A stretch of DNA of 55,063 nt from an uncultured Candidatus Bathyarchaeia archaeon (GCA_964346895.1 CAYFWY010000001.1:1-55063), one strand, 5' to 3'; positions 4,159-28,110 are shown, counted from the first letter of the stretch. The notes: generated from the sequence alone by a model not told the origin. A program made the numbers and translations.

Positions 4159-4605
4159 CTAAGGAGATTCAAAAGGCACAAACTCATAAGTTGGGTTCCC
4201 TTCGGGCGTAACTTTGGCCGTAAGCTTTACCTTCATGCCTACTTTGATTTCTGAAAGTTTTAGTCCCGTCACCCAAGCAAGCACTTTCACGCCTTCTTTC
4301 AACTTTCCAATAACGACAGTATATGGTTTGTATTGTTGGAAAGTTGTCGGTCTGACAACAACGTGCGTGTAAGTTTCAACTTCTGCTTCATTGCTGAGTT
4401 CAACCCACTCGAGTTTAGATGACAGACACTCGGAGCAGTCGGCACTAGGCGGAAAGTACAGTTTTCCACACCCTTCACATTTGGTCGCGTAGATTTTTCC
4501 TTGCTCTAAACCTTTCCAAAACTTCAGAGTTTTACTTATCGGTATTTGGGGCGCGATTGTTATTTCTCTAGATTTTAATGAGGGCATAAAAGACGTCCTG
4601 GTCAC
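4159..4605 (-). CDS. DUF35 OB-fold/zinc-ribbon protein (thiolase-associated)
   Basis: 148-aa ORF with zinc ribbon CEGCGKLYFPPSADCSEC followed by an OB-fold-like C-terminus. Overlaps the upstream thiolase stop by 4 nt, suggesting translational coupling. Confidence 0.85.
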   Translation of the reverse strand: MTRTSFMPSLKSREITIAPQIPISKTLKFWKGLEQGKIYATKCEGCGKLYFPPSADCSECLSSKLEWVELSNEAEVETYTHVVVRPTTFQQYKPYTVVIGKLKEGVKVLAWVTGLKLSEIKVGMKVKLTAKVTPEGNPTYEFVPFESP

Positions 4606-5801
4606 CTCCTAAGTATAGTAACGTAACAATAATGGCCTGTTCCTCCTACGTTGTGGGCAAGAGCAATGTAGTTTTTCAAGGGTACCTGCCTTGCTTTTTC
4701 ATCAACCTCTTCCCTAAGTTGCCTAGTAAGCTCATAAATCATTGAACATCCCGTTGTGCCTATTGGATGCCCCTTCGCCTTCAGGCCGCCATCCATGTTT
4801 ATAGGTATCTTTCCGCCAATTTCAGTTTGCCCTTCCCGCAACATTTTGGCACCCTCACCTTTACCGCACAGCCCAATGTCTTCGTAAGCCATGATCTCTG
4901 CAATTGTGAAGCAGTCGTGCACTTCGGCAAAGTCAATTTGATCTGGCGTAACTCCAGCAGCCTTGTAAGCTCTTCGAGAGGCTAAAACGCTTGCTTCAAG
5001 TCCAACGAAATCTGTTCTCTTACTGAGATTTGCTGTTCCCGAAGAATAGCCTATTCCAGCCACCCATACTGGTGTCTCAATCTTTAGTTCCTTGACTTTT
5101 TCTTCTGATGCAACGATTATCGATGCTGAACCATCTGTCATTGGGCAACAATCAAAAAGTTTCAGCGGCGACGCTATAACCATTGAAGACAATACATCTT
5201 CAACCGTTATCCTCTTCTGGAGGTGGGCAATTGGATTCATCGAACCATACTTGTGGTTCTTTACAGCCACCAATGCCAAGTCCTCCTCTGTTGTTCCATA
5301 CTTATCCATGTGGGCGTTAGCATAAAATGCGTAATATGCAGGAAAGGTCAATCCGAAATTGTGGAATTCCCATAAATAGTATCCAGCTCTTCCAATCCAT
5401 TCCATAGCCGTCGGAGAGTCGATTTCCCTCATCTTTTCAACACCTAATGCTACAGCAATTTCAGCTTGGCCGCTTGCCACTGTAGAGCAGGCTGTTTGAA
5501 ACGCAGCGCTTCCACTTGCACATGCGGCTTCGCATCGAACCAAACCTGCCTTTGTTAATCCACAGTATTCGCTTACAACAACGGCTGGAAGAAGTTCTTC
5601 ATACCATGCTCCAGCTCCTACTGATCCCAAAGCCACAAACTCGATTTCTTTAGCGGTTATTCCTGCATCTACTAGGGAGGGCTTAACGGCTTCAAAAGCT
5701 AACTCCGCCACATTAACATCATTTCTGTTGCCAAATTTTGAGTTACCAACGCCAACAATCGCTACCTTTCTCATAGTGACCACGCATTTATGTTTAGACA
5801 T
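4602..5801 (-). CDS. SCP-x-type thiolase (acetyl-CoA C-acyltransferase), catalytically canonical
   Basis: 399-aa ORF. Nucleophile motif CEAACASGSAAF, HDCF motif and GHPIGTTG are all present. An alternative start at 5774 (MRKVAIVG) is possible. Confidence 0.9.
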   Translation of the reverse strand: MSKHKCVVTMRKVAIVGVGNSKFGNRNDVNVAELAFEAVKPSLVDAGITAKEIEFVALGSVGAGAWYEELLPAVVVSEYCGLTKAGLVRCEAACASGSAAFQTACSTVASGQAEIAVALGVEKMREIDSPTAMEWIGRAGYYLWEFHNFGLTFPAYYAFYANAHMDKYGTTEEDLALVAVKNHKYGSMNPIAHLQKRITVEDVLSSMVIASPLKLFDCCPMTDGSASIIVASEEKVKELKIETPVWVAGIGYSSGTANLSKRTDFVGLEASVLASRRAYKAAGVTPDQIDFAEVHDCFTIAEIMAYEDIGLCGKGEGAKMLREGQTEIGGKIPINMDGGLKAKGHPIGTTGCSMIYELTRQLREEVDEKARQVPLKNYIALAHNVGGTGHYCYVTILRR

Positions 5802-10213: not shown

Positions 10214-10214
10214 T

Positions 10215-11316: not shown

Positions 11317-11329
11317 CTCAAATTGCCAG

Positions 11330-13793: not shown

Positions 13794-14903
13794 ATGAACG
13801 CCCAGGAGCTTGTCCAGAAACATAAACTTCTCGAGTGCATCCAGTGTGGAATGTGCACCGGATGTTGCCCGGTTGCAAAAAAGGCTAGTTTGAATGTAAG
13901 AAGATACATGCAGGAAGTTTCAGCCATAGGCAAACTAATCATACACCCGCAAAACGAGTTATGGAGTTGTACAACGTGCTCCACTTGCAGCATTCTCTGC
14001 CCAAAAGACCTAAACCCATACGAATTTTTGATTGACATACGCAGCATGGCGGTTGAAGAGGGCAAAATCGCCCCAACTATCCGAGATGCCTTAGAAAGCA
14101 TGTTCAAAAATGGCAACCCATGGTCAAGAATACGTAGCAAACGCTCTGAGTGGCTTGAAAGTTTAAACGCCAAACACATTTCACAAGGTGCAGAAATACT
14201 ATATTATGTCGGTTGCACATCAGCCTATGACCCTAGGGTTCAAAACGTAGCTAAAAGCCTCGTAAAATGCTTTAAAAAGGCGGGATTAAGCTTTGGCGTT
14301 CTAGGCGATGAAGAAAGCTGCTGCGGAAGCGAAGCTTACGGTATGGGAGAAAAAGGCTTGTTCGAGTTTCTCGTTGAAGAGAATATGAAAATTTTCAACA
14401 AATACAAAATAAAACGAATGGTGACAAGCTGTCCACATGCTTTTCAGACCTTTAAAAAAAGATACCCACAAACCAGCATCGAAGTTCAACACCACACTCA
14501 ATCACTTGCTAAACTCATCGAAAACCATGACCTAACCTTTTCAAAAGTAGTGAATAGAAAGGTAATTTATCATGATCCCTGCTTTCTGGGAAAGCAAAAT
14601 GGAATCTATGAAGAGCCACGAAAAGTTATTGAAAGTGTGCCAGGAGTTAAGTTGTTTGAATTTGACCGTTCAAGAACTAGAAGCGTTTGCTGCGAAGGCG
14701 GCGGCGGAAGAACATGGATTGACATTCCAGGCCCGCGCTTGGCTGAAAAGCGAGTCAAAGATGCTGCTGAATCAGGTGCAGATATCTTAGCTGTAAGCTG
14801 TCCTTACTGCCTAGTAACATTTGAAGATGCCATAAAAACAACTGGACTAGAGGAAAAAATCCAAACAATGGATATCGCAGAACTACTTGTTCTTGCCCTA
14901 TGA
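13794..14903 (+). CDS. HdrD/GlcF-like iron-sulfur oxidoreductase (2x[4Fe-4S] ferredoxin domain plus two CCG domains), soluble
   Basis: 369-aa ORF. CIQCGMCTGCCP and CTTCSTCSILCP, then CCG-type cysteine motifs (ESCCGSEAY, SCPHAF, HDPCFLG, VCCEGGGG, SCPYCLV). No obvious transmembrane segment. Confidence 0.85.
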   Translation: MNAQELVQKHKLLECIQCGMCTGCCPVAKKASLNVRRYMQEVSAIGKLIIHPQNELWSCTTCSTCSILCPKDLNPYEFLIDIRSMAVEEGKIAPTIRDALESMFKNGNPWSRIRSKRSEWLESLNAKHISQGAEILYYVGCTSAYDPRVQNVAKSLVKCFKKAGLSFGVLGDEESCCGSEAYGMGEKGLFEFLVEENMKIFNKYKIKRMVTSCPHAFQTFKKRYPQTSIEVQHHTQSLAKLIENHDLTFSKVVNRKVIYHDPCFLGKQNGIYEEPRKVIESVPGVKLFEFDRSRTRSVCCEGGGGRTWIDIPGPRLAEKRVKDAAESGADILAVSCPYCLVTFEDAIKTTGLEEKIQTMDIAELLVLAL

Positions 14904-15114
14904 TATCAAACACTGCGACAGAAACTTCGTAATCCAAGACTTAAACGAATAACCGCTTGATTATCATAGGATGAACTTGGCATGGCATGATACATTGTTT
15001 AAAACCAAAGATATCCTTTGAATGCACGAAAGAGGAGGTCATAGAAGAGTTGTAAGCCCGTTGAATTAAACTCACGAAGGCGTGCGCGTAAGCATTTAAG
15101 TTTGTTTCTTCAAA

Positions 15115-15696
15115 ATGTTTAATGATCTAAAAATGAAAGGAATAAGGTTTCACGGTCGAGGAGGAGAAGGCGTGGTCATAGCTGCTGAGCTTGTGGCTAA
15201 CGCTGCCTTCAAGGAAGGCAAGTGGGTTCAGGCCTTCCCATATTTTGGTGGAGAACGTCGAGGTGCTCCTGTAACAGCTTTTGTGAGAATATCTGATAAG
15301 CCAATTCGGCTTAGAGGTCCACTCTACAAACCAGATTATGTCATTGTCCTCAGCCCATTTCTAAGTGAAAAAGTGAATGTGACAGAAGGAATGAAGAACC
15401 GAGGATTATTGATAATTAATAGCGCAGGCAAGCGTAGACAGAGTGAATTCGAAGGATATAGAGTAGTTATGGTTGACGCCACCAAAATAGCTGTAAAATT
15501 AGGTCTTGTTGTCTCTGGAACCGCTGTTGTTAATACCGTGATGCTGGGAGCTTTTGCCAGAGTTACCAAGATTTTCGCTCTTGAATCACTGCAAGAAGCA
15601 ATCAGGGAAAGATGGCGTAATCAACTTGGAGAAATGAATGTTAAAGCCGCTTCTCTGGGATACATGCTTCTCAGGGAGGGTGATGAGGCTGAATAG
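15115..15696 (+). CDS. 2-oxoacid:ferredoxin oxidoreductase, gamma subunit (POR/VOR type)
   Basis: 193-aa ORF with IRFHGRGGEGVVIAAEL and FPYFGGERRGAP. First gene of a gamma-delta-alpha-beta set. Confidence 0.85.
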   Translation: MFNDLKMKGIRFHGRGGEGVVIAAELVANAAFKEGKWVQAFPYFGGERRGAPVTAFVRISDKPIRLRGPLYKPDYVIVLSPFLSEKVNVTEGMKNRGLLIINSAGKRRQSEFEGYRVVMVDATKIAVKLGLVVSGTAVVNTVMLGAFARVTKIFALESLQEAIRERWRNQLGEMNVKAASLGYMLLREGDEAE

Positions 15697-16006
15697 GAAA
15701 CGCGGCCGACGATCACCTCTTCCAAGGACTCCCCTGTCAACTCCGTCTGACAGCGGTTTTGGCGATAGTGGAACATGGCGAATATATCGCCCTATGATCG
15801 ACAAAGACAAATGTACGAAATGTGCCATATGTTGGCTTTTTTGTCCTGAGAACTGCATTAAACTAGATTCAGATAATACCCCTGAGGTCAATCTAGCGCA
15901 TTGTAAGGGTTGTGGGATCTGCGCTAAGGAATGTCCCATCAAAGGGATAGTTATGAAATATGAGGGAGAGATGAAAGATGTCGCAAAAGATAATAGCGAC
16001 TGGTAA
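15683..16006 (+). CDS. 2-oxoacid:ferredoxin oxidoreductase, delta (2x[4Fe-4S] ferredoxin) subunit
   Basis: CTKCAICWLFCP and CKGCGICAKECP. The ORF track begins at 15638. The ATG at 15683 (MRLN) overlaps the gamma-subunit stop, which suggests coupling. Confidence 0.8.
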   Translation: MRLNRKRGRRSPLPRTPLSTPSDSGFGDSGTWRIYRPMIDKDKCTKCAICWLFCPENCIKLDSDNTPEVNLAHCKGCGICAKECPIKGIVMKYEGEMKDVAKDNSDW

Positions 16007-17159
16007 TTATGCTGCTGCGTACGCAGTCAAATTGGCTAAAGTCAAAGTAGTTGCTGCCTACCCTATTACGCCTCAAACCAGTGTTATTGAGAAGATTGCT
16101 GAACTCATAGATAATGGCGAAATGAGTGCTGAATACATCAAGGTAGAATCTGAGCATAGTGCCATGTCAGCATGTATCGGAGCGTCGGCTGCCGGAGTCA
16201 GAACCTTTACAGCTACATCCTCTCAAGGTTTATTGTATATGCATGAGATGCTTCACTGGGCATCAGGAAGTAGATTGCCAATAGTGATGGCGCAAGTAAA
16301 TCGGTCTATAGCTCCCCCTTGGTCTATTTGGACTGATCAAAACGATTCCATCTCTCAAAGGGATACAGGGTGGATCCAATTCTACTGTGAAAACAATCAG
16401 GATATTCTAGATTCTTTGATACAGGCATATAAAGTAGTTGAAGACAAGAAGGTTTTATTGCCTGCGATGGTATGTTATGACGGTTTTGAACTATCCCATA
16501 CAGCGATGCCACTAGAGTTGCCTGATCAAAGAGAGATTGATAATTTCCTAGGACCCTACAATTTGAAGCACGCCCTCATAGATTTTGATAGACCTTCAAC
16601 TCATGGTAACTTGGTAAGTCCAGAATTTTACATGGAGTTTCGGCTTCTAATACAGAAAGCTATGGAGAATGCTAAACATGTTATTGATAAGACTGCATCA
16701 GATTTCTCAAGACGGTTCGGTCGAGACCATGGATCTCAGATTCAATGTTACAAGTGTAGAAGTGCGGATGTGGCAATTGTATCTATGGGTGCTTTAAGTA
16801 GCGAAGCGAAGGAGGCGGTCGACAGACTAAGAAAGAAGAAAGTGCCTGTTGGCGCTATCAAGGTACGAGTCTTCAGACCTTTTCCTACAGAGGTTTTCCA
16901 AGAGATTGGAAAAAGCGTGAAAGCCTTCGTAATCATAGACCGTAATATATCCTTTGGCATTGAAGGTGTCCTCTTCACTGAGGTAAAAAGCTCTTTATAT
17001 CCATTGGACAAGAAGCCCTTGGTTCTCGGCTTTATTGCTGGTCTCGGTGGACGAGACATAAGAGTACGACACATTATCAAGGCAGCCAGAAAAGCATTAA
17101 ACGCTCTTCGAACTGGTGTAAAGTACCCCATGGAGGAATGGGTTAACGTTAAGAGGTGA
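15978..17159 (+). CDS. 2-oxoacid:ferredoxin oxidoreductase, alpha subunit
   Basis: 393-aa ORF with GNYAAAYAVKLAKVKVVAAYPITPQT and SEHSAMSACIGASAAGVRTFTATSSQGL. Confidence 0.88.
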   Translation: MSQKIIATGNYAAAYAVKLAKVKVVAAYPITPQTSVIEKIAELIDNGEMSAEYIKVESEHSAMSACIGASAAGVRTFTATSSQGLLYMHEMLHWASGSRLPIVMAQVNRSIAPPWSIWTDQNDSISQRDTGWIQFYCENNQDILDSLIQAYKVVEDKKVLLPAMVCYDGFELSHTAMPLELPDQREIDNFLGPYNLKHALIDFDRPSTHGNLVSPEFYMEFRLLIQKAMENAKHVIDKTASDFSRRFGRDHGSQIQCYKCRSADVAIVSMGALSSEAKEAVDRLRKKKVPVGAIKVRVFRPFPTEVFQEIGKSVKAFVIIDRNISFGIEGVLFTEVKSSLYPLDKKPLVLGFIAGLGGRDIRVRHIIKAARKALNALRTGVKYPMEEWVNVKR

Positions 17160-18076
17160 CAAAAATGAGTTGGATAAAACAATTACCTAAAGAAGAATGC
17201 ATTCTTCCTGGTATATCTTCCTGTGTGGGCTGTGGTGCTGCCTTGAGTCTGAGATTCGTTTTGAGAATTTTAGGAAGACGAACAATTCTAATCATTCCTG
17301 CTTGTTGCTCCTCGATTATCCAAGGTTCTTATCCTAATACCGCCTTCAAGATTCCTGTTCTGAATGTAGCCTTCGCTTCGAGTGCTGCTATTGCGTCAGG
17401 AGTAGCAGCGGCCCTTAGAACTCGAGATATCGAAGGAGCCAATGTGATGGTCTGGGCTGGAGATGGAGGTACTGCTGACATAGGAATCCAAGCAATCTCG
17501 GGCGCAGCTCAACGTCAGGAAGACATTCTCTACGTCTGTTACGATAATGAAGGTTACATGAATACTGGAATCCAAGAAAGCGGTGCAACACCTTTCGGTG
17601 CATGGACCTCCAACTCACCAAGAGGTAAGCGGCTATTCAAGAAGAACATGCCTTTCATAATGATGGGACATAGAATACCGTATATAGCCACCGCAAATAT
17701 TTCGTATCCTCAAGACTTAATCCTGAAGATTAAAAAAGCTTTGAACCATTCTGGATTCAAGTATATCCATCTTTATACCGCTTGTCCTCCAGGCTGGCGA
17801 ATACCCGCAGATGAAACAATAAGTATAGGAAAACTTGCGGTCAAGACTGGAGTTTGGGCTCTCTTCGAGATAGAAAATGGAAAATTTCGTCTAACAGGTC
17901 CAAGCGTCAGAATTCTCAACAAAAACAGAAGGGAACCCTTGGAAGAATATTTGGGAATCCAAGGGCGTTACAAAACAATAACAGATGAAGACATTGAAAT
18001 CTTAAAAGAAAGAATAGACAAAACATGGAAGATATATTCTGAACTACAGAAATTGGAAGAGGCCGTTCCTCTTTAG
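17156..18076 (+). CDS. 2-oxoacid:ferredoxin oxidoreductase, beta (TPP-binding) subunit
   Basis: 306-aa ORF with CVGCGAALSLR and TPP motif GDGGTADIGIQAISGA...YDNEGYMNTG. GTG start overlaps the alpha-subunit stop. Confidence 0.88.
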   Translation: MTKMSWIKQLPKEECILPGISSCVGCGAALSLRFVLRILGRRTILIIPACCSSIIQGSYPNTAFKIPVLNVAFASSAAIASGVAAALRTRDIEGANVMVWAGDGGTADIGIQAISGAAQRQEDILYVCYDNEGYMNTGIQESGATPFGAWTSNSPRGKRLFKKNMPFIMMGHRIPYIATANISYPQDLILKIKKALNHSGFKYIHLYTACPPGWRIPADETISIGKLAVKTGVWALFEIENGKFRLTGPSVRILNKNRREPLEEYLGIQGRYKTITDEDIEILKERIDKTWKIYSELQKLEEAVPL

Positions 18077-18299: not shown

Positions 18300-20270
18300 T
18301 TAGTCTGTTTGAAGCTTGGGAAGAATTTCTTTAAAGTGATCTAGCGATTTTGGATTGATTAGAGAGTCGATATTTAGAACAGGCTTGCCATGTATTATGT
18401 TTGTAATTGCGATTTCAACCTTTTTCATGCTGAAGGTGTATGGAACGTCTGGCACTTCCACTATTAACGCTGGAACATGGCGAGGAGAAGCATTTTCGCC
18501 TAGGGCTCTTTTTATCTTTTTCTTTAAATTGTCTGTTAAGCTTTGTCCCGGAACAAGTTTGACAAAGAGGATTATGCGCTGATCTCCTTTCCAAGACTGG
18601 CCCGCGGCTACGCTGTCAGCAATTTCTTCCAGTTCCTCTACTACATTGTATATTTCAGCTGTACCTATGCGCACCCCTGATGGCTTCAAAACAGCGTCGG
18701 AACGACCTAGGAAAGTTATTCCACCTGTATCGGTGTGAACTATAATGTAATCGCCGTGTCTCCACACGTTCTTGTTAGAATAAAACCTAAAGTAAGCACT
18801 TTCGTACCTTTCGTTTGTTGGGTCTTTCCAGAAAAAAAGGGGCATAGATGGAGAAGGAGCTTCACAAACGAGTTCTCCTTGTTGATCAGCTAGGGGGTTT
18901 CCCTTCTCGTCATAAGCCTTCACTTTCATTCCCAAAGCCGGAGCCTGTAATTCACCGGCATAAACAGGGAGTGTAGGGCTTCCAGCGACAAAACAACCAT
19001 TGATATCTGTGCCGCCTGAAATAGAGTTGAAATGCAAATCTTTTTTGATCTCTTGGTAGACATATTCAAATCCTTCAGCTGAGAGAGATGAACCCGTTTG
19101 AGATATTTCTCGTAATGATGATAAATCGTAGGCTTTTCCGGGCTTAACTCCTTGACTTCGCAGATAATTGATATATGTTGCACTACAACCGAAAATGGTG
19201 ATTTTCTCGTCCTGAATTAATTTCCACATGGCGTTTGGATCAGGATAGTTGGGGTTGCCATCGTATAGCACAATCGAGGCTCCAACCGCTAGAGAGCTCA
19301 GCATCCAATTCCACATCATCCAACTACAACTTGTCAGGTACATGATCGTATCTTCTCGTTTTAAATCTGTATGGAGCATTAGCTCCTTTAGGTGATTGAT
19401 AAGGACTCCACCAGCTCCCTGTACAATGCACTTTGGTTTACCGGTTGTTCCTGAGGAAAACATGATAAACAGAGGATAACTGAAAGGTAACTGTTCAAAT
19501 TGAATTTCCAGTTCTGTTTCCGGAGCTAAAAAATCATCATAATGCACAGAATTGGCGATATTGCTGACATCAGGTTTTGCTTCCACATATGAAGAAACGA
19601 TCACCTTTTCCAGCGAGGGAATTCCTTTGGTAACTTTCTCAGCTTTAACTAAAATGTTATGAGTCTTACCTTTGTAGAAATATCCATCAGCTGTAAACAT
19701 AACTTTAGGTTCAATTTGACCGAGACGATCCAGTACTGCTTTTGCCCCGAGCTCAGCACCACAAGAAGCCCATGTAGCGCCAACACTAGTGGCGGCAAGC
19801 ATGGCAATGGCTCCTTCTGTCAAATTGGGCATAAAGGAACATACACGATCTCCCGAGACAACCCCTATCTTGCGTAGCGATTTAGCCAGACGCGCCACAG
19901 AGTTGTACAATTCTCTATAGTTTATCTTGGCAGATTTTCCGGTTTCACCTTTGAATATAAAGGCTGTTTGGTCGTCTCTATGTCTCAATAGGTTCTCGGC
20001 GAAATTCAATCTTGTGCCTTCAAACCACCTTGCACCAGGAAACTTGCTTAAGTCATCAACCACCTTGTCATATCGACGGGAGGCTATGATTCCACCAAAT
20101 TCCCAGATGGCCGCCCAAAAATCCGGTATATTCTCTGTCGACCAGTTGTGCATTTGGGAATAAGAGTCGATATTAAGACGATGTTTTTTATTGACAAAGT
20201 CGATAAACATGGTCATATTAGCCTGTTTTATGCGTTCTTTGGAAGGTTGCCAGAGTGCTTTTTTCATCAT
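18300..20270 (-). CDS. Acetoacetyl-CoA synthetase (acetoacetate--CoA ligase)
   Basis: AACS-type N-terminus LWQPSKERIKQANMTMFIDFV..DSYSQMHNWSTENIPDFWAAIWEF, plus SSGTTGKPKCIVQ and RHGDYI..TDTGGITFLGRSDAVLKPSGVRIGTAEIY. The track ORF extends to a TTG at 20486. The ATG-ATG at 20270 gives a typical length of about 656 aa. Confidence 0.88.
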   Translation of the reverse strand: MMKKALWQPSKERIKQANMTMFIDFVNKKHRLNIDSYSQMHNWSTENIPDFWAAIWEFGGIIASRRYDKVVDDLSKFPGARWFEGTRLNFAENLLRHRDDQTAFIFKGETGKSAKINYRELYNSVARLAKSLRKIGVVSGDRVCSFMPNLTEGAIAMLAATSVGATWASCGAELGAKAVLDRLGQIEPKVMFTADGYFYKGKTHNILVKAEKVTKGIPSLEKVIVSSYVEAKPDVSNIANSVHYDDFLAPETELEIQFEQLPFSYPLFIMFSSGTTGKPKCIVQGAGGVLINHLKELMLHTDLKREDTIMYLTSCSWMMWNWMLSSLAVGASIVLYDGNPNYPDPNAMWKLIQDEKITIFGCSATYINYLRSQGVKPGKAYDLSSLREISQTGSSLSAEGFEYVYQEIKKDLHFNSISGGTDINGCFVAGSPTLPVYAGELQAPALGMKVKAYDEKGNPLADQQGELVCEAPSPSMPLFFWKDPTNERYESAYFRFYSNKNVWRHGDYIIVHTDTGGITFLGRSDAVLKPSGVRIGTAEIYNVVEELEEIADSVAAGQSWKGDQRIILFVKLVPGQSLTDNLKKKIKRALGENASPRHVPALIVEVPDVPYTFSMKKVEIAITNIIHGKPVLNIDSLINPKSLDHFKEILPKLQTD

Positions 20271-20486
20271 TTCGCTTCCTTTAGTTTTTCGCGCGCATAC
20301 TTTGATGTCCTTTTGTCTATTGATTAACTCTGGATCCGGAACGTGAAAATATGTGATTATGCCTTTTTCTTCGCCGACACCTTGGGGGAAGATTTGATTA
20401 TCTTTTATGGTATCATCACTGATTACGAGCGCTAGGCTTGAAGTAACGCCTTGCAGATGATAAGTAGTCAAATTAGTGGCATCCAA

Positions 20487-20960
20487 CTATTTTGTCGGTT
20501 TAAAATATCTTATGTCCATCATGGAACCTACGCGTTCTTTCTTCTTCTTGAAGACTGCCTCCACACAGATTCCGATTCTTAAATCTTTTGGATCCACTTC
20601 ACCCAGCCTGTGAACGAATCCGCCTTCAACGTTATCGATTTTGACCATTGCCCAGATAACTGGCTTCTTTAGTTTGAATCCATCAACATCTATGTAAGCA
20701 ATTGTGTAGGTGTAAACTTTACCCCTTTTGCCAACCTTCACCCACTCCTTCAATCTCTCAAAACATCGTTCGCAGAAAAGCCTCGGAGGCACGTAGATGA
20801 TACCGCAATTTTTGCAGTTGGTACCGAAGATCTTTGCGTTTTCCTTAATCTCCCTGAAGAATTTCTCTCCCGTAATGCCGTAGGTGTATGAGTAGTCACA
20901 TTCCATGTGGCCCATCCAATGCTTAATCTCACGGGGGTCGCCTATTTTTTCTAAGGACAT
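20487..20960 (-). CDS. DUF35 OB-fold/zinc-ribbon protein
   Basis: 157-aa ORF with zinc ribbon CKNCGIIYVPPRLFCERC followed by an OB-fold-like region. Confidence 0.85.
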   Translation of the reverse strand: MSLEKIGDPREIKHWMGHMECDYSYTYGITGEKFFREIKENAKIFGTNCKNCGIIYVPPRLFCERCFERLKEWVKVGKRGKVYTYTIAYIDVDGFKLKKPVIWAMVKIDNVEGGFVHRLGEVDPKDLRIGICVEAVFKKKKERVGSMMDIRYFKPTK

Positions 20961-20964
20961 AGTT

Positions 20965-21477
20965 CTACACTTCCATTGGCTTGAAATATCTTATGTCCGT
21001 TATGGCTCCTATCCGCTCTCTCCGAGGTTTCCAAACAGCTTTTACTCTCATGCCAAAATTGATGTTCTTTTTCTTTGCTTCGCCTATAAGATGAAATATT
21101 CCCATGCCCTTTGAGGCTCCGTCAAGTTCGATTATGGCAATTAAAATCGGTTCTTTCAGTCTTTTTGCATCTGCGGCCAGATAGGAAATTGAGTAGGTGT
21201 TAATTATGCCTGTATCCTTGACGTAAACCCACTCATCTGTAGGTCTGAAACATAACTCGCAGTACATTCGCGGCGGAACCATTATGCGCCCACATATGTT
21301 ACATTTTCTGGCAATAATTCTCCCCTGTTTGAGCTCTTTCAGAAATCTACTCATAGCTGTTCCAGTATTCCATGCATATCTTATCTTCGGTTTCCAACGT
21401 TCAACTGGAACTCGTCCTTTCCTCAGATCCTCTGTTTTGATCCTTTCACCAGCATACTTTTCAGTTTTCGCGCTCAT
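20965..21477 (-). CDS. DUF35 OB-fold/zinc-ribbon protein (paralog)
   Basis: 170-aa ORF with zinc ribbon CNICGRIMVPPRMYCELC followed by an OB-fold-like region. Confidence 0.85.
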   Translation of the reverse strand: MSAKTEKYAGERIKTEDLRKGRVPVERWKPKIRYAWNTGTAMSRFLKELKQGRIIARKCNICGRIMVPPRMYCELCFRPTDEWVYVKDTGIINTYSISYLAADAKRLKEPILIAIIELDGASKGMGIFHLIGEAKKKNINFGMRVKAVWKPRRERIGAITDIRYFKPMEV

Positions 21478-21487
21478 TCTTAAAATC

Positions 21488-22666
21488 TCAGCTCCTCATA
21501 ACTATAACAGACCCGTATTGCATGAGATCACCCCAAGCTTGAGCTACACCAGTTCTTGGATCGTTTGGCACCTGTCGCTTTCCAGCCTCGCCTCTCAACT
21601 GCCAGAAGATTTCACAGACTTTCATTAGCCCAGCCGCCGCAATTGGATTGCCTACCCCTAAAAGACCACCAGAAGGATTTATGGGCAAGTCACCGTCTCT
21701 CTGTGTGACCCCCTCCTCTGTGAGTTTCGGAGCCTCGCCTTTCTTACACAAGAGGAGGCCTTCCATGTGATGAAGTTCCTTGTAGTCAAAGGGATCATAT
21801 GGTTCCGCGACATCTATCTCTTTACGAGGGTTTTTTATTCCCGCCATCTTGTAAGCCATTCTTGCGGCACATTCCACATATTTGGGAAAGTAGAGGTCTC
21901 GGTTGGTCCAGTAGGTTGAGTCTATGCACCAACCAACGCCGTCAATCCAAACAGGGGCATCCGTGATTTTTTTGGCTATATCCTCTGAAGCTAGGACTAA
22001 TGCTGCAGCGCCGTCACTCGTTGGACTAATATCTAGACGCTGGACAGGCCAAACCATGACCTCAGAGTTGAGAACGTCCTCGACCGTGATTTTTGCTGGG
22101 AGTTGTGCACAGGGATGATTCATTGCGTTTCCTTTGTTCTTAACAGAAACCAGTGCAATCTGTTCCTTCTTAACATCGTGGACGTGCATGTACCGGTGCA
22201 TCTCGAGAGCGAAGATCCAGACTAGGTTCATTCCAAGGGGTCTGCTCATTATTGGATCAAAGATGGTTGTGAAGGCGTATTGGGGATGGGGAAAACACGA
22301 CGACATTTTCTCTTCAGCTACCACTAAGCAAGTGTCAAAGTGACCTGAGGCCACGTGCCACCAACCCGCGTTCGCCGTAAAGACGCCTGTCCCTCCGCCG
22401 ACGTAGACTCTGCAGTATGGTTTACGCCATGCACCAGCCCCATTTGACAAGTTTTCTCCTTTCATATGGATTCCATCAAAAGCGTCGGGGCCTGTCCCAA
22501 GAGTAACACACTCGATGTCCTTTCGAGTTAGTCCAGCCGAATCGAGAGCCATTTTGGAGGCTTCATAAGCTAATTCTCTACCGGTTTCTTTCAAGTTTCG
22601 TCTGAAAAGGGTTAACCCCGCTCCAATAACTGCAACTCTTCGTTTAACAGACATTTTAAATCTCAT
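21488..22666 (-). CDS. Thiolase-fold (SCP-x-like) protein lacking the canonical catalytic residues
   Basis: 392-aa ORF colinear with the canonical thiolase at 4602-5801. It has GGTG in place of CASG, YDPF in place of HDCF, and GVGNPIAAAG in place of KGHPIGTTG. Confidence 0.85.
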   Translation of the reverse strand: MRFKMSVKRRVAVIGAGLTLFRRNLKETGRELAYEASKMALDSAGLTRKDIECVTLGTGPDAFDGIHMKGENLSNGAGAWRKPYCRVYVGGGTGVFTANAGWWHVASGHFDTCLVVAEEKMSSCFPHPQYAFTTIFDPIMSRPLGMNLVWIFALEMHRYMHVHDVKKEQIALVSVKNKGNAMNHPCAQLPAKITVEDVLNSEVMVWPVQRLDISPTSDGAAALVLASEDIAKKITDAPVWIDGVGWCIDSTYWTNRDLYFPKYVECAARMAYKMAGIKNPRKEIDVAEPYDPFDYKELHHMEGLLLCKKGEAPKLTEEGVTQRDGDLPINPSGGLLGVGNPIAAAGLMKVCEIFWQLRGEAGKRQVPNDPRTGVAQAWGDLMQYGSVIVMRS

Positions 22667-23829
22667 CCCAAGTCAGTGCTCAGAACAGCTACGGCCCCAC
22701 TATCGGTTGGAATTCCACGCCACACCTGGGCTAGTCCTGTTTCGGCGTTTGCTACTTGACGTCTGCCAGCTTCGCCTCGCAGTTGCAAAGTGATTTCCAG
22801 AAGTTTCTGAAGGCCTGATGCTTCAAGTGAGTATCCAACTCCTAGCAGACCACCGGATGAATTGACCGGTAGGTTGCCATCTCTTTCTGTAACCCCATCC
22901 TCCGTTAGCTTTCCAGCCTCCCCCCTTTCACAGAACCCTAGGGCTTCAAGGTTTTGAAGTTCTTTGTAGGAGAACATATCATCGATTTCTGCCAGGGATA
23001 TCTCTTTTCTCGGATTTTTTATCCCAGCAGTCTTGTAAGCCATTTTTGCTGCAAGTTCGGTGTATATTGCCCTCCCCCATTTGCGGGTCTCCAGCCAGGG
23101 AGTACCAGAATTCCATCCTACTCCCCTTATCCACACTGGAGTATCGGTAAGTTTTCTTACAACATTGTCTGAAGCCAAAACCATTACGACACACCCGTCA
23201 ACGAGGGGGCTGATTTCCAAACGTTTCAGCGGATAAAACAATGACTCTGATGCAAGCACATCGTCTACGGTTAGGTTTGCTCCAAAGGCTGCGTAAGGAT
23301 TGGCTAGAGCGTTTTTTTTGTTCTTTACAACGACTTGGGCGCACATTCTTTTTGTGGTTTTTGTGTCATGTAGGTAGCGATTCATTTCCAGTCCAGCAAT
23401 GTAAAATGGATGACCATCCATGGGTCTGTTAAAGAGTGGATCCATAGCAAAGGCAACGATGTCCGCAAAGGTGAGTATGTCAGAAGCTTTACTGTGCGCT
23501 TCAAGGGCAATTATGTTGAAGGCACCGGTGTGTATCAGCATATAGGCGGTTGCCAACCCATATAATCCGTCAGCTGCAATCGTGAACAAGGGTCTCAAAA
23601 CGGCTCCAAGCTGATCTGGAACAAACTCGTCAGAGATACTGACTCCTTCCCAGTAGTCTTCGGAACAGCAGATGAAAGTGTCTACGTCTCTTCGAGGATC
23701 AACTCCGGCATCTTCATAAGCTTTGGTTGCTGCCTCAAACATTAGTTCTTTATAAGATACTTCGGGGGTAATAGGTCTGAAGCCTGTGCATCCAACGCCA
23801 ACAATAGCTATTTTGTTCAGGGTTGTCAC
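22663..23829 (-). CDS. Thiolase-fold (SCP-x-like) protein lacking the canonical catalytic residues (paralog)
   Basis: 388-aa ORF with a GTG start. It has AADG in place of CASG, DDMF in place of HDCF, and GVGYSLEASG in place of KGHPIGTTG. Overlaps the next gene by 4 nt. Confidence 0.85.
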   Translation of the reverse strand: MTTLNKIAIVGVGCTGFRPITPEVSYKELMFEAATKAYEDAGVDPRRDVDTFICCSEDYWEGVSISDEFVPDQLGAVLRPLFTIAADGLYGLATAYMLIHTGAFNIIALEAHSKASDILTFADIVAFAMDPLFNRPMDGHPFYIAGLEMNRYLHDTKTTKRMCAQVVVKNKKNALANPYAAFGANLTVDDVLASESLFYPLKRLEISPLVDGCVVMVLASDNVVRKLTDTPVWIRGVGWNSGTPWLETRKWGRAIYTELAAKMAYKTAGIKNPRKEISLAEIDDMFSYKELQNLEALGFCERGEAGKLTEDGVTERDGNLPVNSSGGLLGVGYSLEASGLQKLLEITLQLRGEAGRRQVANAETGLAQVWRGIPTDSGAVAVLSTDLG

Positions 23830-24076
23830 CTTTTAACTTTAAAAAAGGTTTGCGTTATTTATTTAAAAAATTTTACATGCGCGCGCCAAAATGATAGACG
23901 TTTAATCATGCAGTAAATAGGAGTCAGGGTTGTCAAAACTGGTGAACTGTGTTGCATAGCCATAGCTTTCAGAATATGCCCAAAATTGCATGGATATGTG
24001 CGTTTGTCTTTACAAAAGAACTTATTTCTAAGCCCGAAGATATTCTTGCCACAGAAGCATTGGTGGGGGGAAATCT

Positions 24077-25243
24077 TTGGATTTTGAGTTGAGTGTTGAA
24101 CAAAAAATGATAGTTGAAACCGCTTCTGAAATAGCTCACGGTTTTGGTCCAGAATATTGGAGGGAAAAAGATAAGAAGCATGAATTTCCTGAGGATTTCT
24201 GGAAAGTTTTGGTTGAGAATGGGTTTTCGGGTATAGTTATTCCTGAAAAATACGGCGGAAGCGAGATGGGAATGTTTGAGATGATTTTAGCCATGGAAGC
24301 TTTAGCCTCTGAAGGTTGCGGATTGGCTGGAACATGGTTTCTATGTTTGACTTCTGTTTTTGGGAGCCTATCCATAGTAAAACATGGAAATAATAGTCAA
24401 AAAGAAGAATACCTGCCAAAAATTGCTAAAGGTACGGAGTTCTGTTTGGGTTTAACTGAACCTGAAGCTGGAACAAACACTTTAGCCACTAGGACAATGG
24501 CTGTGCCGAAAGGAGGCGAGTATGCAATCAACGGAGAAAAAATCTTTATTTCAGGTGCTGATAGGGCTGAAGGAATGATTCTCGTAACCAGAACAACTCC
24601 TTCAGAAAAAGCTCCAAAAAGAACTTTGGGTTTGAGCCTTTTCCTTGTAGATCTACCTAACCCGGCAATCGAAGTTGTTCCCATAGAAAAACATGGAATT
24701 AACTACTCAAAAACCTGTGAAGTTTTCATCAACGATCTTAGAATTCCTGAGGAAAAGATGCTGGGTGAAAAGAACAAGGGATGGTATCTCATATTGGACA
24801 TTTTGAACCCTGAAAGAATGTCTTTCTCAGCGGCTTCAGTTGGAATCGGGCTTTTAGCCATCAAAAAAGCTGTTGAATATGCTAAGGAAAGAAAGGTTTT
24901 CAGAAATCCCATAGGTTCTCATCAAGCTATCCAGTTTCCGCTCGCAGATGCTAAAGCAAAAATTGAGGCTGCCAAGCTGCTTAATTATATGGCTGCTTGG
25001 CTTTATGATAAGGGGCAACCTTGTGGTGCTGAGGCTAACATGGCTAAGATTTCTGCTGTTGAAGCAGGTTTCCAAGCCGTTTACCATGCTATGCAAACTT
25101 TCGGCGGCTACGGTTATGCTCTCGAATATGATGTAGAACGTTGGTGGCGAGAGATAAATCTCATCAGACTTGCACCCGTAACCCATCAAATGGCCTTGGC
25201 TTTTGTCGGTGAGCATGTTTTGGGTTTGCCAAAATCCTACTAA
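24077..25243 (+). CDS. Acyl-CoA dehydrogenase
   Basis: 388-aa ORF with a TTG start. LSVEQKMIVE, GLTEPEAGTN, and QTFGGYGY plus the ACAD C-terminal helical domain. Confidence 0.9.
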   Translation: MDFELSVEQKMIVETASEIAHGFGPEYWREKDKKHEFPEDFWKVLVENGFSGIVIPEKYGGSEMGMFEMILAMEALASEGCGLAGTWFLCLTSVFGSLSIVKHGNNSQKEEYLPKIAKGTEFCLGLTEPEAGTNTLATRTMAVPKGGEYAINGEKIFISGADRAEGMILVTRTTPSEKAPKRTLGLSLFLVDLPNPAIEVVPIEKHGINYSKTCEVFINDLRIPEEKMLGEKNKGWYLILDILNPERMSFSAASVGIGLLAIKKAVEYAKERKVFRNPIGSHQAIQFPLADAKAKIEAAKLLNYMAAWLYDKGQPCGAEANMAKISAVEAGFQAVYHAMQTFGGYGYALEYDVERWWREINLIRLAPVTHQMALAFVGEHVLGLPKSY

Positions 25244-25413
25244 ATCCGCGCACGCATAACGTATTTTGCAAAACCTCAGGCATTTCAGTTCACGAATATC
25301 TCCAATCCTTTGTTTTTGTATACAATGGCGGTGCTCCATGATGTTTGTTGCTGATCGAGTTGGACAAAAAATTTTAGGAAGCGTTGTTGTAGATCTTTTT
25401 CGAGGAACTTTTC

Positions 25414-27138
25414 TTGGGGGATGTTGATAACTTTCTTAAAGCAAGAGACTTGTTATTGAATGCAGACAATTATGAGTATACAAAAAGCAATTTTGAATGG
25501 CCGAAGATTGAAGAATTCAACTGGGCTACGGATTTTTTTGATAAAATAGCTGAAGAAAGTACTAACCCTGCAATAGTTTTAGTTGATGACAAGGGTCTAG
25601 AGGAAAAGATAAATTTCAAGAGTTTGAAGCAGAGATCCAACCAAGTTGCCAACTTCTTAAGAAGTCTTGATTTAACCAAAGGCGACAGGATATTACTCTT
25701 ATTACCGAATCGAGTTGAACTCTTCGAGATTTTTCTTGGAGCCATGAAAGTCGGATGTTCGATTGTACCAGCTTCAACATTACTTACCCCAGAAGATGTA
25801 AAAGACAGAATAGTTAGGGGAAATATCAAGTGCGCTATATCGGACCGAGTATTTTCTAATAGAATTGAACTGGCAGGCAAGGCAAAAGAAGCTTTGAAAT
25901 GCAAAATATTAGTTGACGGAGAGGCTAAAGATTGGCAATCCTATAGTGAAATAAACACCTTTTCATCAGAGTTTTCTACTAAACAGAAATTCTTACACAG
26001 CGACGAGCTATTGATTTATTTTACTTCTGGAACTACAGCAAAACCAAAACTTGTGTTACATACGTACACTAGTTATCCTGTAGGTCATTTGACAACGATG
26101 TATTGGATTGGTGTAAAGCCAGGAGATCTTCATTATAATATCAGTGCCCCAGGATGGGCAAAACACGCATGGAGTACAGTTTTTGCAGCATGGAATGCTG
26201 GAGCCACGTCCTTTGTTTATGCCTACTCAGGAAGGTTTAATCCGAAAAAGACTCTTGAAAACATAGAAAAATATGAAGTCAAAACTTTGTGCGCACCGCC
26301 TACTGTGTGGCGACTTTTCATGCTTGAGAAGTTGAAGAAGTACAGTTTCTCCTTGAAAGAAGTTGTTAGCGCTGGAGAGCCACTAAATCCTGAAATAATA
26401 AAGAGGGTTAAGGAAAGCACCGACTTAGAAATTAGGGAAGGATACGGACAGACTGAGACAACCTTGCAAATCGGCGTCTTTCCCGGCATGAAAATCAAAC
26501 CAGGGTCAATGGGGGTGGAAGCTCCAGGTTTTCATGTTGACATAGTTGACGTTTATAATCAGAAATGTTTAACAAACAACAGAGAAGGAGCGATTGCAGT
26601 AGAAATCACGCCGCGGAGACCTACTGGCCTCATGGAGCGCTACATCGATCCCGTAGAGAAGAACTTAGAGGTTTTTCTTGGAGGGTGGTATCTCACAGGA
26701 GACTTGGCCAAAAAAGATGATGATGGATATTTTTGGTTCATAGGGAGAATCGATGATGTTTTCAAAAGCTCAGACTATAGAATAAGCCCCTTTGAAATTG
26801 AAAGCGAACTGCTTACACATAGATTAGTAACAGAATCTGCGGTAATCGCCAGTCCTGATGAATTAAGAGGATATGTACCTAAAGCCTTCATAATCCTTAG
26901 AGCCGGCATAAAACCTTCTAGGGAAAACGCAATTGAGTTGTTCAGATTCACAAGAAACAAAATAGCACCGTATAAAAGACCCCGAATCATACAGTTTGTG
27001 ACAGAGCTCCCGAAGACCATTAGTGGCAAGATAAGAAGAAAGCAACTTAGACATCAAGAAGCACAATTAGGAAGCAGAAGAGCCAAAGCACAATATGAGT
27101 TTTATGAAGAAGAGTTCGCACAAGAACTTGAAATGTGA
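25414..27138 (+). CDS. AMP-forming acyl-CoA synthetase (medium-chain/ACSM-like)
   Basis: 574-aa ORF with YFTSGTTAKPKLVLH, EGYGQTET, YLTGDLAKKDDDGYFWFIGRIDDVFKSSDYRISPFEIE and PKTISGKIRR. The TTG start is uncertain. Confidence 0.88.
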   Translation: MGDVDNFLKARDLLLNADNYEYTKSNFEWPKIEEFNWATDFFDKIAEESTNPAIVLVDDKGLEEKINFKSLKQRSNQVANFLRSLDLTKGDRILLLLPNRVELFEIFLGAMKVGCSIVPASTLLTPEDVKDRIVRGNIKCAISDRVFSNRIELAGKAKEALKCKILVDGEAKDWQSYSEINTFSSEFSTKQKFLHSDELLIYFTSGTTAKPKLVLHTYTSYPVGHLTTMYWIGVKPGDLHYNISAPGWAKHAWSTVFAAWNAGATSFVYAYSGRFNPKKTLENIEKYEVKTLCAPPTVWRLFMLEKLKKYSFSLKEVVSAGEPLNPEIIKRVKESTDLEIREGYGQTETTLQIGVFPGMKIKPGSMGVEAPGFHVDIVDVYNQKCLTNNREGAIAVEITPRRPTGLMERYIDPVEKNLEVFLGGWYLTGDLAKKDDDGYFWFIGRIDDVFKSSDYRISPFEIESELLTHRLVTESAVIASPDELRGYVPKAFIILRAGIKPSRENAIELFRFTRNKIAPYKRPRIIQFVTELPKTISGKIRRKQLRHQEAQLGSRRAKAQYEFYEEEFAQELEM

Positions 27139-27260
27139 TTCACAATAAATTTCGAGTAATTCTCAGTGTATGTACGTATGGATTTGTGCAAAGTGGTTTG
27201 GCACAACTACGCCGCTGCACAATGTTGCTTCCCTTGTTCATAGATCAAGCCTGCTAAAAG

Positions 27261-27818
27261 CTACTCTTTTTGTCCATACTTTTCGTAGTAACAAAATTCT
27301 TGAAGCGGTTTTCTTCGATGGATTTCCCCCTTTTCTTTAGCTGGATAGCCTACAGGAGTGAAGGCTACAACTCGAACGTTTGCTGGAATGTCAAGGATTT
27401 CTTTCACCATTTTCTCGTCGAATTCTCCCACCCAACAGGTTCCTAATCCCCTATCACTAGCTGCAAGAATTAGATGCTCAAAAGATATGCCGATGTCTGT
27501 CATATAGTAATCCTTATCTCCCATGTGACCTGAATTCTGGGGTTGTGCACAAGCCACGATTATAACAGGTGCTTGACTAATCCAATCCTTTGACTCGGGT
27601 CTCGACTCTGCAATCTTGATTCTTCTCTTTTCGTTCTTGACAATTATGTACTCCCAACACTGTTGGTTCTTCCAAGAAGGTGCGAGACGAGCTGCTTCCA
27701 ACAAGAATTTTAGATCTTCATTAGATATAGGATCTGGCTTATACCCCCTTATGCTTCTTCTCTTCATAATTACATCAACAAACTCCATACCGCTCACCAA
27801 GTAGACATTAGCTAACAT
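27261..27818 (-). CDS. Nitroreductase-family flavoprotein
   Basis: 185-aa ORF with MKRRSIRGY, ARLAPSWKNQQCW and a nitroreductase-like length. The start could be 27788 (MEFVDV). Confidence 0.8.
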   Translation of the reverse strand: MLANVYLVSGMEFVDVIMKRRSIRGYKPDPISNEDLKFLLEAARLAPSWKNQQCWEYIIVKNEKRRIKIAESRPESKDWISQAPVIIVACAQPQNSGHMGDKDYYMTDIGISFEHLILAASDRGLGTCWVGEFDEKMVKEILDIPANVRVVAFTPVGYPAKEKGEIHRRKPLQEFCYYEKYGQKE

Positions 27819-28110
27819 AGTTATTTACAGTTAATGAATGCACATGCACATATTGTACGCAAGCTAGATTTGGGGATTAAAGTTCAACTCTTGTGTGCGC
27901 ACGTCTTAGAAGTGAGAAATAGCGACAATATATATATCGGTGTTAAATTGCCTTGAGGCGCTTTCTGTCATAATGCTCAATCCAATGCACAGATTGCTAC
28001 CGACAAGATTATTAAAACTTGAATTCATACCATTTCCCTTTGAACCCAGGAGAAAGTAGCAAAATTCTTGTTTTTGGATAGCATTATTATAGTATTGCAT
28101 TATCAGTTGC

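Follow-up and report, generated by a model that had tools for sequence, protein, structure and literature searches.

The 55,063-nucleotide stretch analysed here (GCA_964346895.1, CAYFWY010000001.1:1-55063; hereafter the window) comes from an uncultured Candidatus Bathyarchaeia archaeon. It encodes two paralogous proteins, A and B, which are predicted to be full thiolase-fold proteins without the thiolase triad, together with two DUF35 proteins, D1 and D2. A (22663..23829, 388 aa) belongs to the PRK06066 family and B (21488..22666, with a possible start at 22654; 392 aa) to the PRK06065 family. D1 (20965..21477, 170 aa) is a stand-alone DUF35 protein with a zinc ribbon and an OB fold, and D2 (20487..20960, 157 aa) a second DUF35 protein, the predicted orthologue of SSO2064 (PDB 3IRB). 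The four genes are arranged head to tail on the minus strand and are followed, on the same strand, by an open reading frame (ORF) for acetoacetate-CoA ligase (AACS). We propose B as the catalytic subunit and tentatively favour a Cys-independent reaction of the enolate or aldol type on a short-chain acyl-CoA, carried out in a D1·B–A·D2 complex.

Loss of the thiolase catalytic residues

A canonical SCP-x-type thiolase from the window (4602..5801, minus strand), in which the Cys/His/Cys/His residues are present, served as comparator. The residues are Cys94 (in EAACASG), His295 and Cys297 (HDCF), and His345 (GHPIG). At the equivalent positions B carries Gly91, Tyr290, Pro292 and Asn340, i.e. YDPF instead of HDCF and Asn instead of the His of GHP. 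Opposite the HDCF and GHP positions of the comparator, A has Asp283 and Met285 (DDMF) and Tyr333. Its nucleophile loop is two to three residues shorter, and Ala, Asp or Gly falls at the Cys position depending on the alignment; neither Cys nor Ser is found there in the A protein of the window. A sequence-only reading of this DNA had claimed that all three thiolase catalytic residues are replaced in both proteins. Four independent alignments agree on this: MAFFT alignments of 3 and of 111 sequences, a phmmer alignment against the solved thiolases 7YVY and 6ESQ, and an hmmalign alignment to a profile of 21 Cys-containing relatives.

The alignments to solved thiolases and to the profile of Cys-containing relatives revealed no hidden Cys/His/Cys triad. 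No Cys is conserved to 97% or more in the 69 orthologues of A or the 78 orthologues of B, which excludes a relocated Cys triad. The AlphaFold2 (AF2) models of both proteins have the thiolase alpha-beta-alpha-beta-alpha fold, with a predicted local distance difference test score (pLDDT) of 87.8 for B and 84.2 for A. Foldseek aligns them with DUF35-dependent thiolases (7YVY, 6ET9, 6HSP) at template modelling (TM) scores of about 0.8-0.9. As these confident models superpose on thiolases, the fold appears intact and the alignment is not forced. A and B are not pseudogenes.

The proposed paralogy of the proteins was confirmed: A and B are 42% identical to each other and 30-32% identical to the canonical thiolase, and D1 and D2 share 39% identity. 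In NCBIfam, A matches PRK06066 (NF004722) with 526 bits (cut-off 516) and B matches PRK06065 (NF004721) with 700 bits (cut-off 455). Both models are equivalogs which are named just 'thiolase domain-containing protein'. Thiolase_C_1 is the sole Pfam domain matched by A. Neither protein matches a family of 3-hydroxy-3-methylglutaryl-CoA (HMG-CoA) synthases; both match Thiolase_C_1 and SCP-x-type models. With the NCBIfam models termed 'lipid-transfer protein', only weak sub-threshold matches far below the cut-offs were obtained for A and B.

Two observations on thiolase signatures may be added. Position 85 of A, two residues before Asp87, is occupied by Ser, Cys or Thr in 48 of the 69 orthologues (Ala in the window), and in the profile alignment the Cys of one A orthologue (locus L001) falls in the nucleophile column. 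Other degenerate signatures, namely CHAH, GHAH, SHAH/SHPH and DHCH, are common among the 50%-identity representatives. CHAH has Ala for the acid/base Cys, as is also seen in the HDAF of the Pyrococcus furiosus thiolase 7YVY; in GHAH the nucleophile is lost and both His residues are retained.

Unequal conservation of A and B

Conservation was measured relative to the proteins of the window, with 67 orthologues of D1 and 56 of D2 in addition to the 69 and 78 orthologues of A and B. Within its superfamily, B belongs to the most highly conserved proteins, with a mean identity of 75% and with 35% of its positions conserved to at least 97%. The corresponding values are 57% and 10% for A, 55% and 9% for D1, and 47% and 8% for D2. 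The residues Gly90, Gly91, Thr93, Tyr290, Asp291, Pro292, Phe293, Tyr295, Asn340, Pro341, Trp378, Gly379 and Asp380 are 100% invariant in the B orthologues. In A, only Asp87 and Asp284 are fixed at or around the former catalytic positions. Position 285 is Arg, Thr, Leu, Lys, Met or Ser, and position 333 is Asn, Tyr, His or Trp.

Since B is invariant and A variable at these positions, one catalytic and one auxiliary subunit fit better than two active sites. This pattern points to B as the catalytic partner, and A looks like an auxiliary pseudo-enzyme subunit. Non-thiolytic C-C chemistry had been suggested for the pair on the basis of its lost residues. This is reasonable for B, which has the Gly and Tyr of the aldolases Ltp2 and Sal, but A and B are not equivalent.

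An acidic motif common to A and B (residues ~55-75) was considered as a metal site and set aside. The thiolase-docking cleft of DUF35 is positively charged (PMC6996347), so that a docking surface would be the simpler explanation.

Distribution and integrity of the four-gene module

A pattern scan that covered one representative genome for each GTDB species matched at least 600 stretches, and at least 554 of these encode a relative of B. The best 80 of these were compared, and all of them are at least 69% identical to the window's B. Their archaeal hosts are Bathyarchaeia, other Thermoproteota, Nitrososphaeria, Asgard lineages, Thermoplasmatota and Methanobacteriota. Bacterial hosts among the best 80 are Anaerolineae, Dehalococcoidia, Actinomycetota, Symbiobacterium and a deltaproteobacterial metagenome-assembled genome (MAG). 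The module thus also occurs in several bacterial phyla and is not confined to archaea. The best relatives of both A and B come from Bathyarchaeia, the closest locus listed being CP070679 with a 92% identical B.

A tblastn survey revealed the order A-B-D1-D2 in nearly all of about 80 loci, as far as the contigs were long enough. As exceptions, a Thermoproteota MAG (L024, 3614-4768) has B alone, and Ca. Pelearchaeum (L057, 6598-9167) has A and B with no DUF35 genes within 8 kb. The conserved unit is the four-gene module A-B-D1-D2. The 2+2 gene set first noticed in the window is thereby established, and natural fusions of B, D1 and D2 (see below) add to this.

Upon clustering at 50% identity, the B orthogroup comprises a few clusters, and many other Cys-less clusters are found below about 46% identity. 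A neighbour-joining tree of the clusters consists of three groups, Cys-containing, A-like and B-like. The A-like group has Asp-Gly at the shortened loop, and the B-like group has Gly/Tyr/(Pro or Ala)/Asn. Modules paralogous to the present one, with an A-like and a B-like protein of about 35-40% identity to A and B, are present as second copies in two Asgard loci (L070, 13747-17013; L072, 14944-17147). Another was found in Syntrophales (L087, 7001-10360), inside a beta-oxidation operon with a BKACE beta-keto-acid cleavage enzyme. Two DUF35 genes follow the paralogous pair in L087 and L070; the L072 stretch shows two thiolase-like genes only. The occurrence of paralogous 2+2 modules in Asgard archaea and in Syntrophales indicates that this architecture is general to a large uncharacterised branch of the superfamily.

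DUF35 partners and the Sulfolobus locus

D1 and D2 each contain the zf-ChsH2 (PF12172) and OB_ChsH2_C (PF01796) domains, with scores above the Pfam cut-offs. The Cys residues of the CxxC...CxxC pattern are invariant in both proteins (Cys59, Cys62, Cys73 and Cys76 in D1; Cys49, Cys52, Cys63 and Cys66 in D2). Among solved structures, both are most closely related to 3IRB, the structure of SSO2064 from Sulfolobus solfataricus and the founding DUF35 crystal structure, solved in 2010. D2 matches 3IRB over residues 1-116 with a phmmer E-value of 2e-25 and about 42% identity, and the zinc ligands of SSO2064 (Cys49, Cys52, Cys63, Cys66) have the same numbering as the invariant Cys residues of D2. Judged by sequence, D2 is the orthologue of SSO2064. 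The two also share the position within the module, but SSO2064 was solved alone, as a structural-genomics target.

The Sulfolobus locus was reached via a 94%-identical match to the aligned SSO2064 fragment in Sulfolobus sp. E5-1-F (L088, CP045687). The module is located at 5171-8435, with the D2-type subunit fourth in order. The genes are, in sequence, a ligase of the acetyl-CoA synthetase (ACS) family on the opposite strand, an acyl-CoA dehydrogenase (ACAD), A, B, D1, D2, an indolepyruvate-type 2-oxoacid:ferredoxin oxidoreductase, and a second ACS-family ligase. Sulfolobus A is 48% identical to the window's A and scores 701 bits with PRK06066. Sulfolobus B is 67% identical to the window's B, scores 846 bits with PRK06065 and retains every B signature motif. 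Both models were evidently seeded on Sulfolobales proteins. From the gene order in this related strain, we infer that SSO2061-2064 are A, B, D1 and D2. SSO2061, annotated as 'acetyl-CoA acetyltransferase', has been detected as a protein in S. solfataricus (PMC3518317). The 2010 paper on the SSO2064 structure noted only the general thiolase neighbourhood of the DUF35 family, and did not identify partners or function.

A literature search, which included the topics DUF35-thiolase, SSO2061-2064 and Ltp3/Ltp4, yielded no paper characterising the PRK06065/PRK06066 family. A limonene paper and the MucABC paper were considered as such and found to concern other enzymes. The earlier statement that no characterised example is known can thus be kept as far as the literature is concerned, but it must be qualified in that NCBIfam equivalogs exist and one subunit corresponds to a solved structure.

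Natural single-chain fusions of B to D1 and a D2-like domain were found in P0123 (731 aa) and P0137 (562 aa, partial); the second zinc ribbon of P0123 is missing some Cys residues. An apparent fusion of A (6-325) and B (57-392) in P0098 (679 aa) was rejected, as parts of both proteins are missing and it comes from a single source; it is probably a frameshift or assembly artefact. In solved complexes, one DUF35 protein is bound per thiolase-like protomer, and DUF35 proteins never bind each other (PMC6996347, PMC12329534). This mode of binding, the fusions and the unequal conservation fit an A-B heterodimer with one DUF35 staple per protomer. B may pair with D1, and A with D2; the hint for this comes from conservation levels that run in parallel.

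Genomic neighbourhood of the module

Genes within 8 kb of the module were counted in the related loci. Cys-containing thiolases are the most frequent neighbour (29 of 84 loci), followed by acyl-CoA dehydrogenases (about 20 loci; directly before A in Sulfolobus), FadD-type ligases (about 15) and enoyl-CoA hydratases (nine). Genes for electron-transferring flavoprotein (ETF) are also found nearby. In many Bathyarchaeia loci, an SCP-x thiolase/DUF35 pair adjoins the module in divergent orientation, and in L086 a crotonase gene is located directly before A. A 2-oxoacid:ferredoxin oxidoreductase adjoins the module both in the window and in Sulfolobus.

AACS had been counted as part of the unit. The locus survey rejects it as a defining component, since it is absent in the closest relatives among the Bathyarchaeia (L005, L085 and L086) and in most phyla. 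However, a true AACS (more than 800 bits with TIGR01217) is located between B and D1 in five Nitrososphaerales loci, and ligases of the ACS type are encoded beside the module in Conexivisphaerales, Thermoplasmatota, Anaerolineales and, as two copies, in Sulfolobus. AACS is thus accessory and lineage-specific, and its independent recurrences, with those of ACS, suggest a looser functional link.

In eight Bathyarchaeia loci, the module is followed by genes for a B12-dependent acyl-CoA mutase, MeaB and adenosyltransferase (ATR). These genes adjoin the module in L006 (4744-8374), L007, L009, L019-L021, L023 and L034 (1355-11117). The operon of L034 has the order Hbd, regulator, ACAD, ATR, mutase large subunit, mutase small subunit, A, B, D1, D2, MeaB. 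The substrate class of the mutases was judged by their Tyr/Arg or Phe/Gln signature, as the NCBIfam models did not discriminate. In the mutases of the Bathyarchaeia loci and of L034, Phe and Gln take the place of Tyr89 and Arg207 of methylmalonyl-CoA mutase; this we take to be the signature of isobutyryl-CoA mutase. A mutase neighbouring the module in Thermoplasmata has Tyr and Arg, with an epimerase-like gene nearby.

What these neighbourhoods have in common is the breakdown of C4-C6 acyl-CoAs, many of which are branched or come from amino acids; acetoacetate or acetate is either an input or a by-product. Such a context would suit an enzyme cleaving a 3-hydroxyacyl-CoA with which the usual dehydrogenase/thiolase route cannot deal. 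Leucine degradation was considered as the specific pathway and rejected, as neither a carboxylase nor a methylglutaconyl-CoA hydratase recurs near the module.

A gene for Peptidase_M29 (AmpS-type aminopeptidase) is found upstream of the module in Baldrarchaeia, Promethearchaeota, other uncultured archaea and Thermoplasmata. It is located 1.2-3.6 kb upstream of B in L003, L004, L028, L033, L037 and L038, and at about 3.1 kb in L001 and L002.

Gene boundaries and surroundings in the window

The gaps between B and D1 (10 nt) and between D1 and D2 (4 nt) are short. The 4-nt overlap of A and B described previously exists only if B starts at 22666. The B orthologues are mostly 388 aa long, which fits the ATG at 22654; B may thus start there, with no overlap. 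The AT-rich stretch TTTTTTAAATAAATA upstream of A (23830..23885, minus strand) is a candidate archaeal promoter, possibly that of the module.

The AACS gene (18300..20270, minus strand) is listed as an ORF extending to 20486, with a TTG start directly after the D2 stop codon. Its product matches TIGR01217 with 833 bits (cut-off 521) and NF002937 with 874 bits, but the match begins only at residue 74-76, and the first ~72 codons match nothing. The sequence ATG ATG is found at about 20270, with GGAAG just upstream. The TTG-initiated extension is therefore predicted to be spurious and the ATG ATG to be the true start, which leaves a spacer of about 216 nt between D2 and AACS. This would be room for a promoter of AACS's own. 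The tight packing described in the sequence-only reading is therefore found for A-B-D1-D2 but not for AACS.

A divergent acyl-CoA dehydrogenase gene (24077..25243, plus strand), of the kind that recurs beside the module in other loci, matches ACAD families in NCBIfam, with scores below the cut-offs. The ORF listing places a DUF35 partner of the comparator thiolase at 4159..4605 (minus strand). The module lies within an island of acyl-CoA catabolism genes (1563-18076 and 24077-32056) that encodes three acyl-CoA dehydrogenases, three AMP-forming ligases, a crotonase and a hydroxyacyl-CoA dehydrogenase. Also in the island are genes for ETF alpha and beta, located beside those for HdrA-like and CCG-domain proteins, and genes for 2-oxoacid:ferredoxin oxidoreductase in two separate sets. 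A search for replication-origin repeats near the cdc6 gene gave weak two-copy matches only, and no tRNA genes were found in the window.

Comparison with known systems

Ltp2-ChsH2 (6OK1) and Sal-Shy (9MYR), which are retro-aldolases of steroid side chains, resemble the module in their SCP2-thiolase fold and in having a zinc-ribbon/OB DUF35 partner per protomer. The HDCF of SCP2 thiolases is YDCF in TbSLP, YDCY in Sal and YDHF in Ltp2; the Tyr of YDxF/Y is the catalytic base of the retro-aldol reaction in Sal and Ltp2, and Sal has Gly at the position of the nucleophilic Cys of thiolases (PMC12329534). B shares with these enzymes Gly91 (as in Sal) and Tyr290, the first residue of YDxF, both of them invariant; A has neither. 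B has no counterpart of their second catalytic residue, which is Cys304 of YDCY in Sal and Tyr344 in Ltp2: Pro292 of B stands where Sal has Cys and Ltp2 His, and Asn340 where Ltp2 has Tyr344 and Sal Gln. Further, Ltp2 and Sal are only 21-24% identical to B and rank 39-43 in the Foldseek list, behind true archaeal thiolases. They are homodimers from a steroid context in which DUF35 comes with a MaoC hydratase domain, whereas the module has two paralogues, two free DUF35 proteins and no steroid context. B may work in the manner of Ltp2 and Sal, but judged by sequence and fold it is not a member of their clades, and the likeness may be convergent.

Among known systems, the nearest by sequence and fold are the archaeal DUF35-dependent thiolases (6ESQ/6ET9 of Methanothermococcus thermolithotrophicus, 7YVY of P. 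furiosus, Saci_1121/1120 of Sulfolobus acidocaldarius), with 29-32% identity and TM scores of 0.86-0.94. Like the module, these are archaeal, have free DUF35 partners and act on short-chain acyl-CoAs. Unlike it, they retain both the Cys nucleophile and the His residues, and combine one type of thiolase and one DUF35 protein with HMG-CoA synthase (HMGCS) or with a reductase/dehydratase. The module has no HMGCS, but two Cys-less paralogues and two DUF35 paralogues.

In the hetero-oligomeric C-acyltransferases PhlABC and MucABC, active and inactive thiolase-fold subunits are stapled by DUF35, and the division of labour between A and B would fit the logic of PhlA and PhlC. However, PhlA and MucA resemble HMGS, and the catalytic Cys is retained in PhlC and MucB, whereas A and B are both SCP-x-like and Cys-less. 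Wilbrink et al. (2012) reportedly showed by genetics that both Ltp3 and Ltp4 are needed to degrade C24-branched sterol side chains, and proposed an aldol-lyase function for both. They resemble A and B as an adjacent paralogous pair of thiolase-like genes, but belong to sterol catabolism of actinobacteria. The passage of PMC10398937 that cites them refers to paired thiolase-like proteins. TbSLP of Trypanosoma brucei (5AB4-5AB7) has an SCP2-type fold, YDCF and no Cys nucleophile, and binds acetoacetyl-CoA and malonyl-CoA; it differs in being a homodimer that has no DUF35 partner and keeps the Cys of YDCF, and is 22% identical to B.

Possible reaction of B

Following the example of solved DUF35 complexes, we envisage that A and B form a thiolase-fold heterodimer and that each protomer has its own DUF35 staple, which gives D1·B–A·D2 or possibly twice this assembly. 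With the acyl-enzyme Cys lost, B cannot carry out covalent thiolysis. Its pocket, with Gly at the nucleophile site, Tyr-Asp-Pro-Phe for His-Asp-Cys-Phe and Asn for the GHP His, would bind a short-chain acyl-CoA and stabilise the thioester enolate, and a C-C bond would be cleaved or formed without a covalent intermediate. Most probably, a 3-hydroxyacyl-CoA would undergo an aldol or retro-aldol reaction in which Tyr290 acts as the base, like the Tyr of Ltp2 and Sal. A, a diverged paralogue, would complete the obligate dimer and carry the second DUF35 protein; it is probably non-catalytic. The pathway would be the catabolism of short- or branched-chain acyl-CoAs, to which the AACS adjoining in the window could feed or recycle acetoacetate. 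Stoichiometry, identity of the catalytic subunit, reaction type and substrate class are all inferred.

Several points weigh against this proposal and keep our preference for it tentative. B lies outside the Ltp2/Sal clades, its nearest structures being true archaeal thiolases, and the match of its Gly and Tyr to the aldolases may be due to convergence or coincidence. B has Pro or Asn in place of the second catalytic residue of these enzymes, and no general acid was identified. In some clusters of the wider B-like clade the Tyr is replaced by Gln or Phe. No hydratase is fused to D1 or D2, a hydratase gene adjoins in a minority of loci only, and genes for handling a product (e.g. an aldehyde dehydrogenase) do not recur around the module.

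A narrower version of the same proposal is that B is a lyase for HMG-CoA or a related 3-hydroxy-3-alkyl(glutaryl)-CoA. The products would be acetyl-CoA and acetoacetate, or acetate and a 3-oxoacyl-CoA; AACS or ACS would re-activate the acid, and a thiolase would split the product. We regard this as unlikely, and what likelihood it has is already contained in that of the general proposal. Substrates of the HMG-CoA type would explain the ligases, as a true AACS lies beside or inside the module in two unrelated lineages and ACS-family ligases adjoin it in the four further lineages listed above. The commonest neighbours, Cys-containing thiolases and acyl-CoA dehydrogenases, also speak for it. Oxidation is impossible for tertiary 3-hydroxyacyl-CoAs and a lyase is needed; this is the established logic behind both Ltp2 and HMG-CoA lyase. 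However, no genes for methylcrotonyl-CoA carboxylase or methylglutaconyl-CoA hydratase recur near the module, a short-chain ligase is missing in most loci, and the argument is one of context alone.

Alternatively, B might be an acyl-CoA decarboxylase, in which an oxyanion hole of Tyr290 and Asn340 stabilises the enolate formed from a malonyl-, methylmalonyl- or glutaconyl-type CoA. There are precedents in the Cys-less ketosynthase relatives KSQ and CLF, and Asn at the position equivalent to GHP is part of the decarboxylation machinery in KAS III and CHS enzymes. In B this Asn is invariant, and it is the most widely kept residue across the B-like and many A-like clusters. The mutase in the Thermoplasmata locus, of the methylmalonyl-CoA (Tyr/Arg) type, and its epimerase-like gene would agree with such a substrate, but the Phe/Gln of the mutases in Bathyarchaeia and L034 points to substrates without a carboxylate. 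Moreover, neither carboxylase nor CO2-related genes recur close to the module. TbSLP (YDCF) is a further precedent in that it decarboxylates malonyl-CoA, but its rate is very low, and Sal has no such activity (PMC12329534). We consider decarboxylation improbable.

A non-catalytic role has been given a similarly low likelihood. The module would then be an acyl-CoA-binding scaffold or regulator that recruits or channels enzymes of beta-oxidation or synthesis, as DUF35 does in thiolase/HMG-CoA synthase and fatty-acid-synthase assemblies. Every canonical catalytic residue is gone in A and B, DUF35 proteins are established scaffolds (10.1101/2024.07.05.601840, PMC6996347), and Cys-containing thiolase/DUF35 pairs are divergently encoded beside the module in many Bathyarchaeia loci. 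The conservation of B argues against this role: the seven named pocket positions are invariant in 78 sequences from two domains, with at least 69% identity among the best 80 listed. Such absolute conservation is the pattern of an active site, or of a very specific ligand site, and not of a relaxed scaffold.

Least likely of all is a Cys-free acetoacetyl-CoA thiolase or condensing enzyme, in which free CoA attacks in the space at Gly91 or Asp87 of A is the nucleophile. Asp87 is indeed 100% conserved at the shortened loop, the nearest structures are true acetoacetyl-CoA thiolases, enzymes making acetoacetyl-CoA adjoin the module (AACS in the window and in five Nitrososphaerales loci, 3-hydroxybutyryl-CoA dehydrogenase in L034), and the L034 operon is without any other thiolase; but a Cys-containing thiolase is the commonest neighbour, so that a replacement seems unneeded, the rest of the A pocket is variable, B also lacks the acid/base Cys and both His residues, and we know of no precedent for non-covalent thiolysis.

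Implications

Thiolase-fold/DUF35 complexes as a kind are already known; a Cys-less 2+2 form would be new. Archaeal genes annotated as 'acetyl-CoA acetyltransferase' are counted as thiolases in metabolic reconstructions, but A and B cannot be thiolases of the usual kind. The top-ranked loci listed include those of Bathyarchaeia, Asgard archaea and soil ammonia oxidisers; the Sulfolobales module was found by a separate look-up. As the module is present in the genetically tractable Sulfolobales and the structure of one subunit is solved, its function is directly testable.

It is possible, if on balance rather unlikely, that the module is an ancient and widespread C-C enzyme of central short-chain acyl-CoA metabolism that works without a Cys intermediate, for example a non-homologous replacement of HMG-CoA lyase or of another 3-hydroxyacyl-CoA lyase. 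Composed of a catalytic subunit, a pseudo-enzyme and two staples, it would have no characterised counterpart. Haloarchaeal thiolases of a Ser type exist besides the Cys thiolases. Assignment of the reaction of A and B would correct a systematic mis-annotation and would bring to four the ways in which the thiolase fold carries out C-C chemistry, the others being those of Cys thiolases, Ser-type haloarchaeal thiolases and steroid aldolases. It would probably also fill a missing step in the catabolism of amino acids or short-chain acids in archaea.

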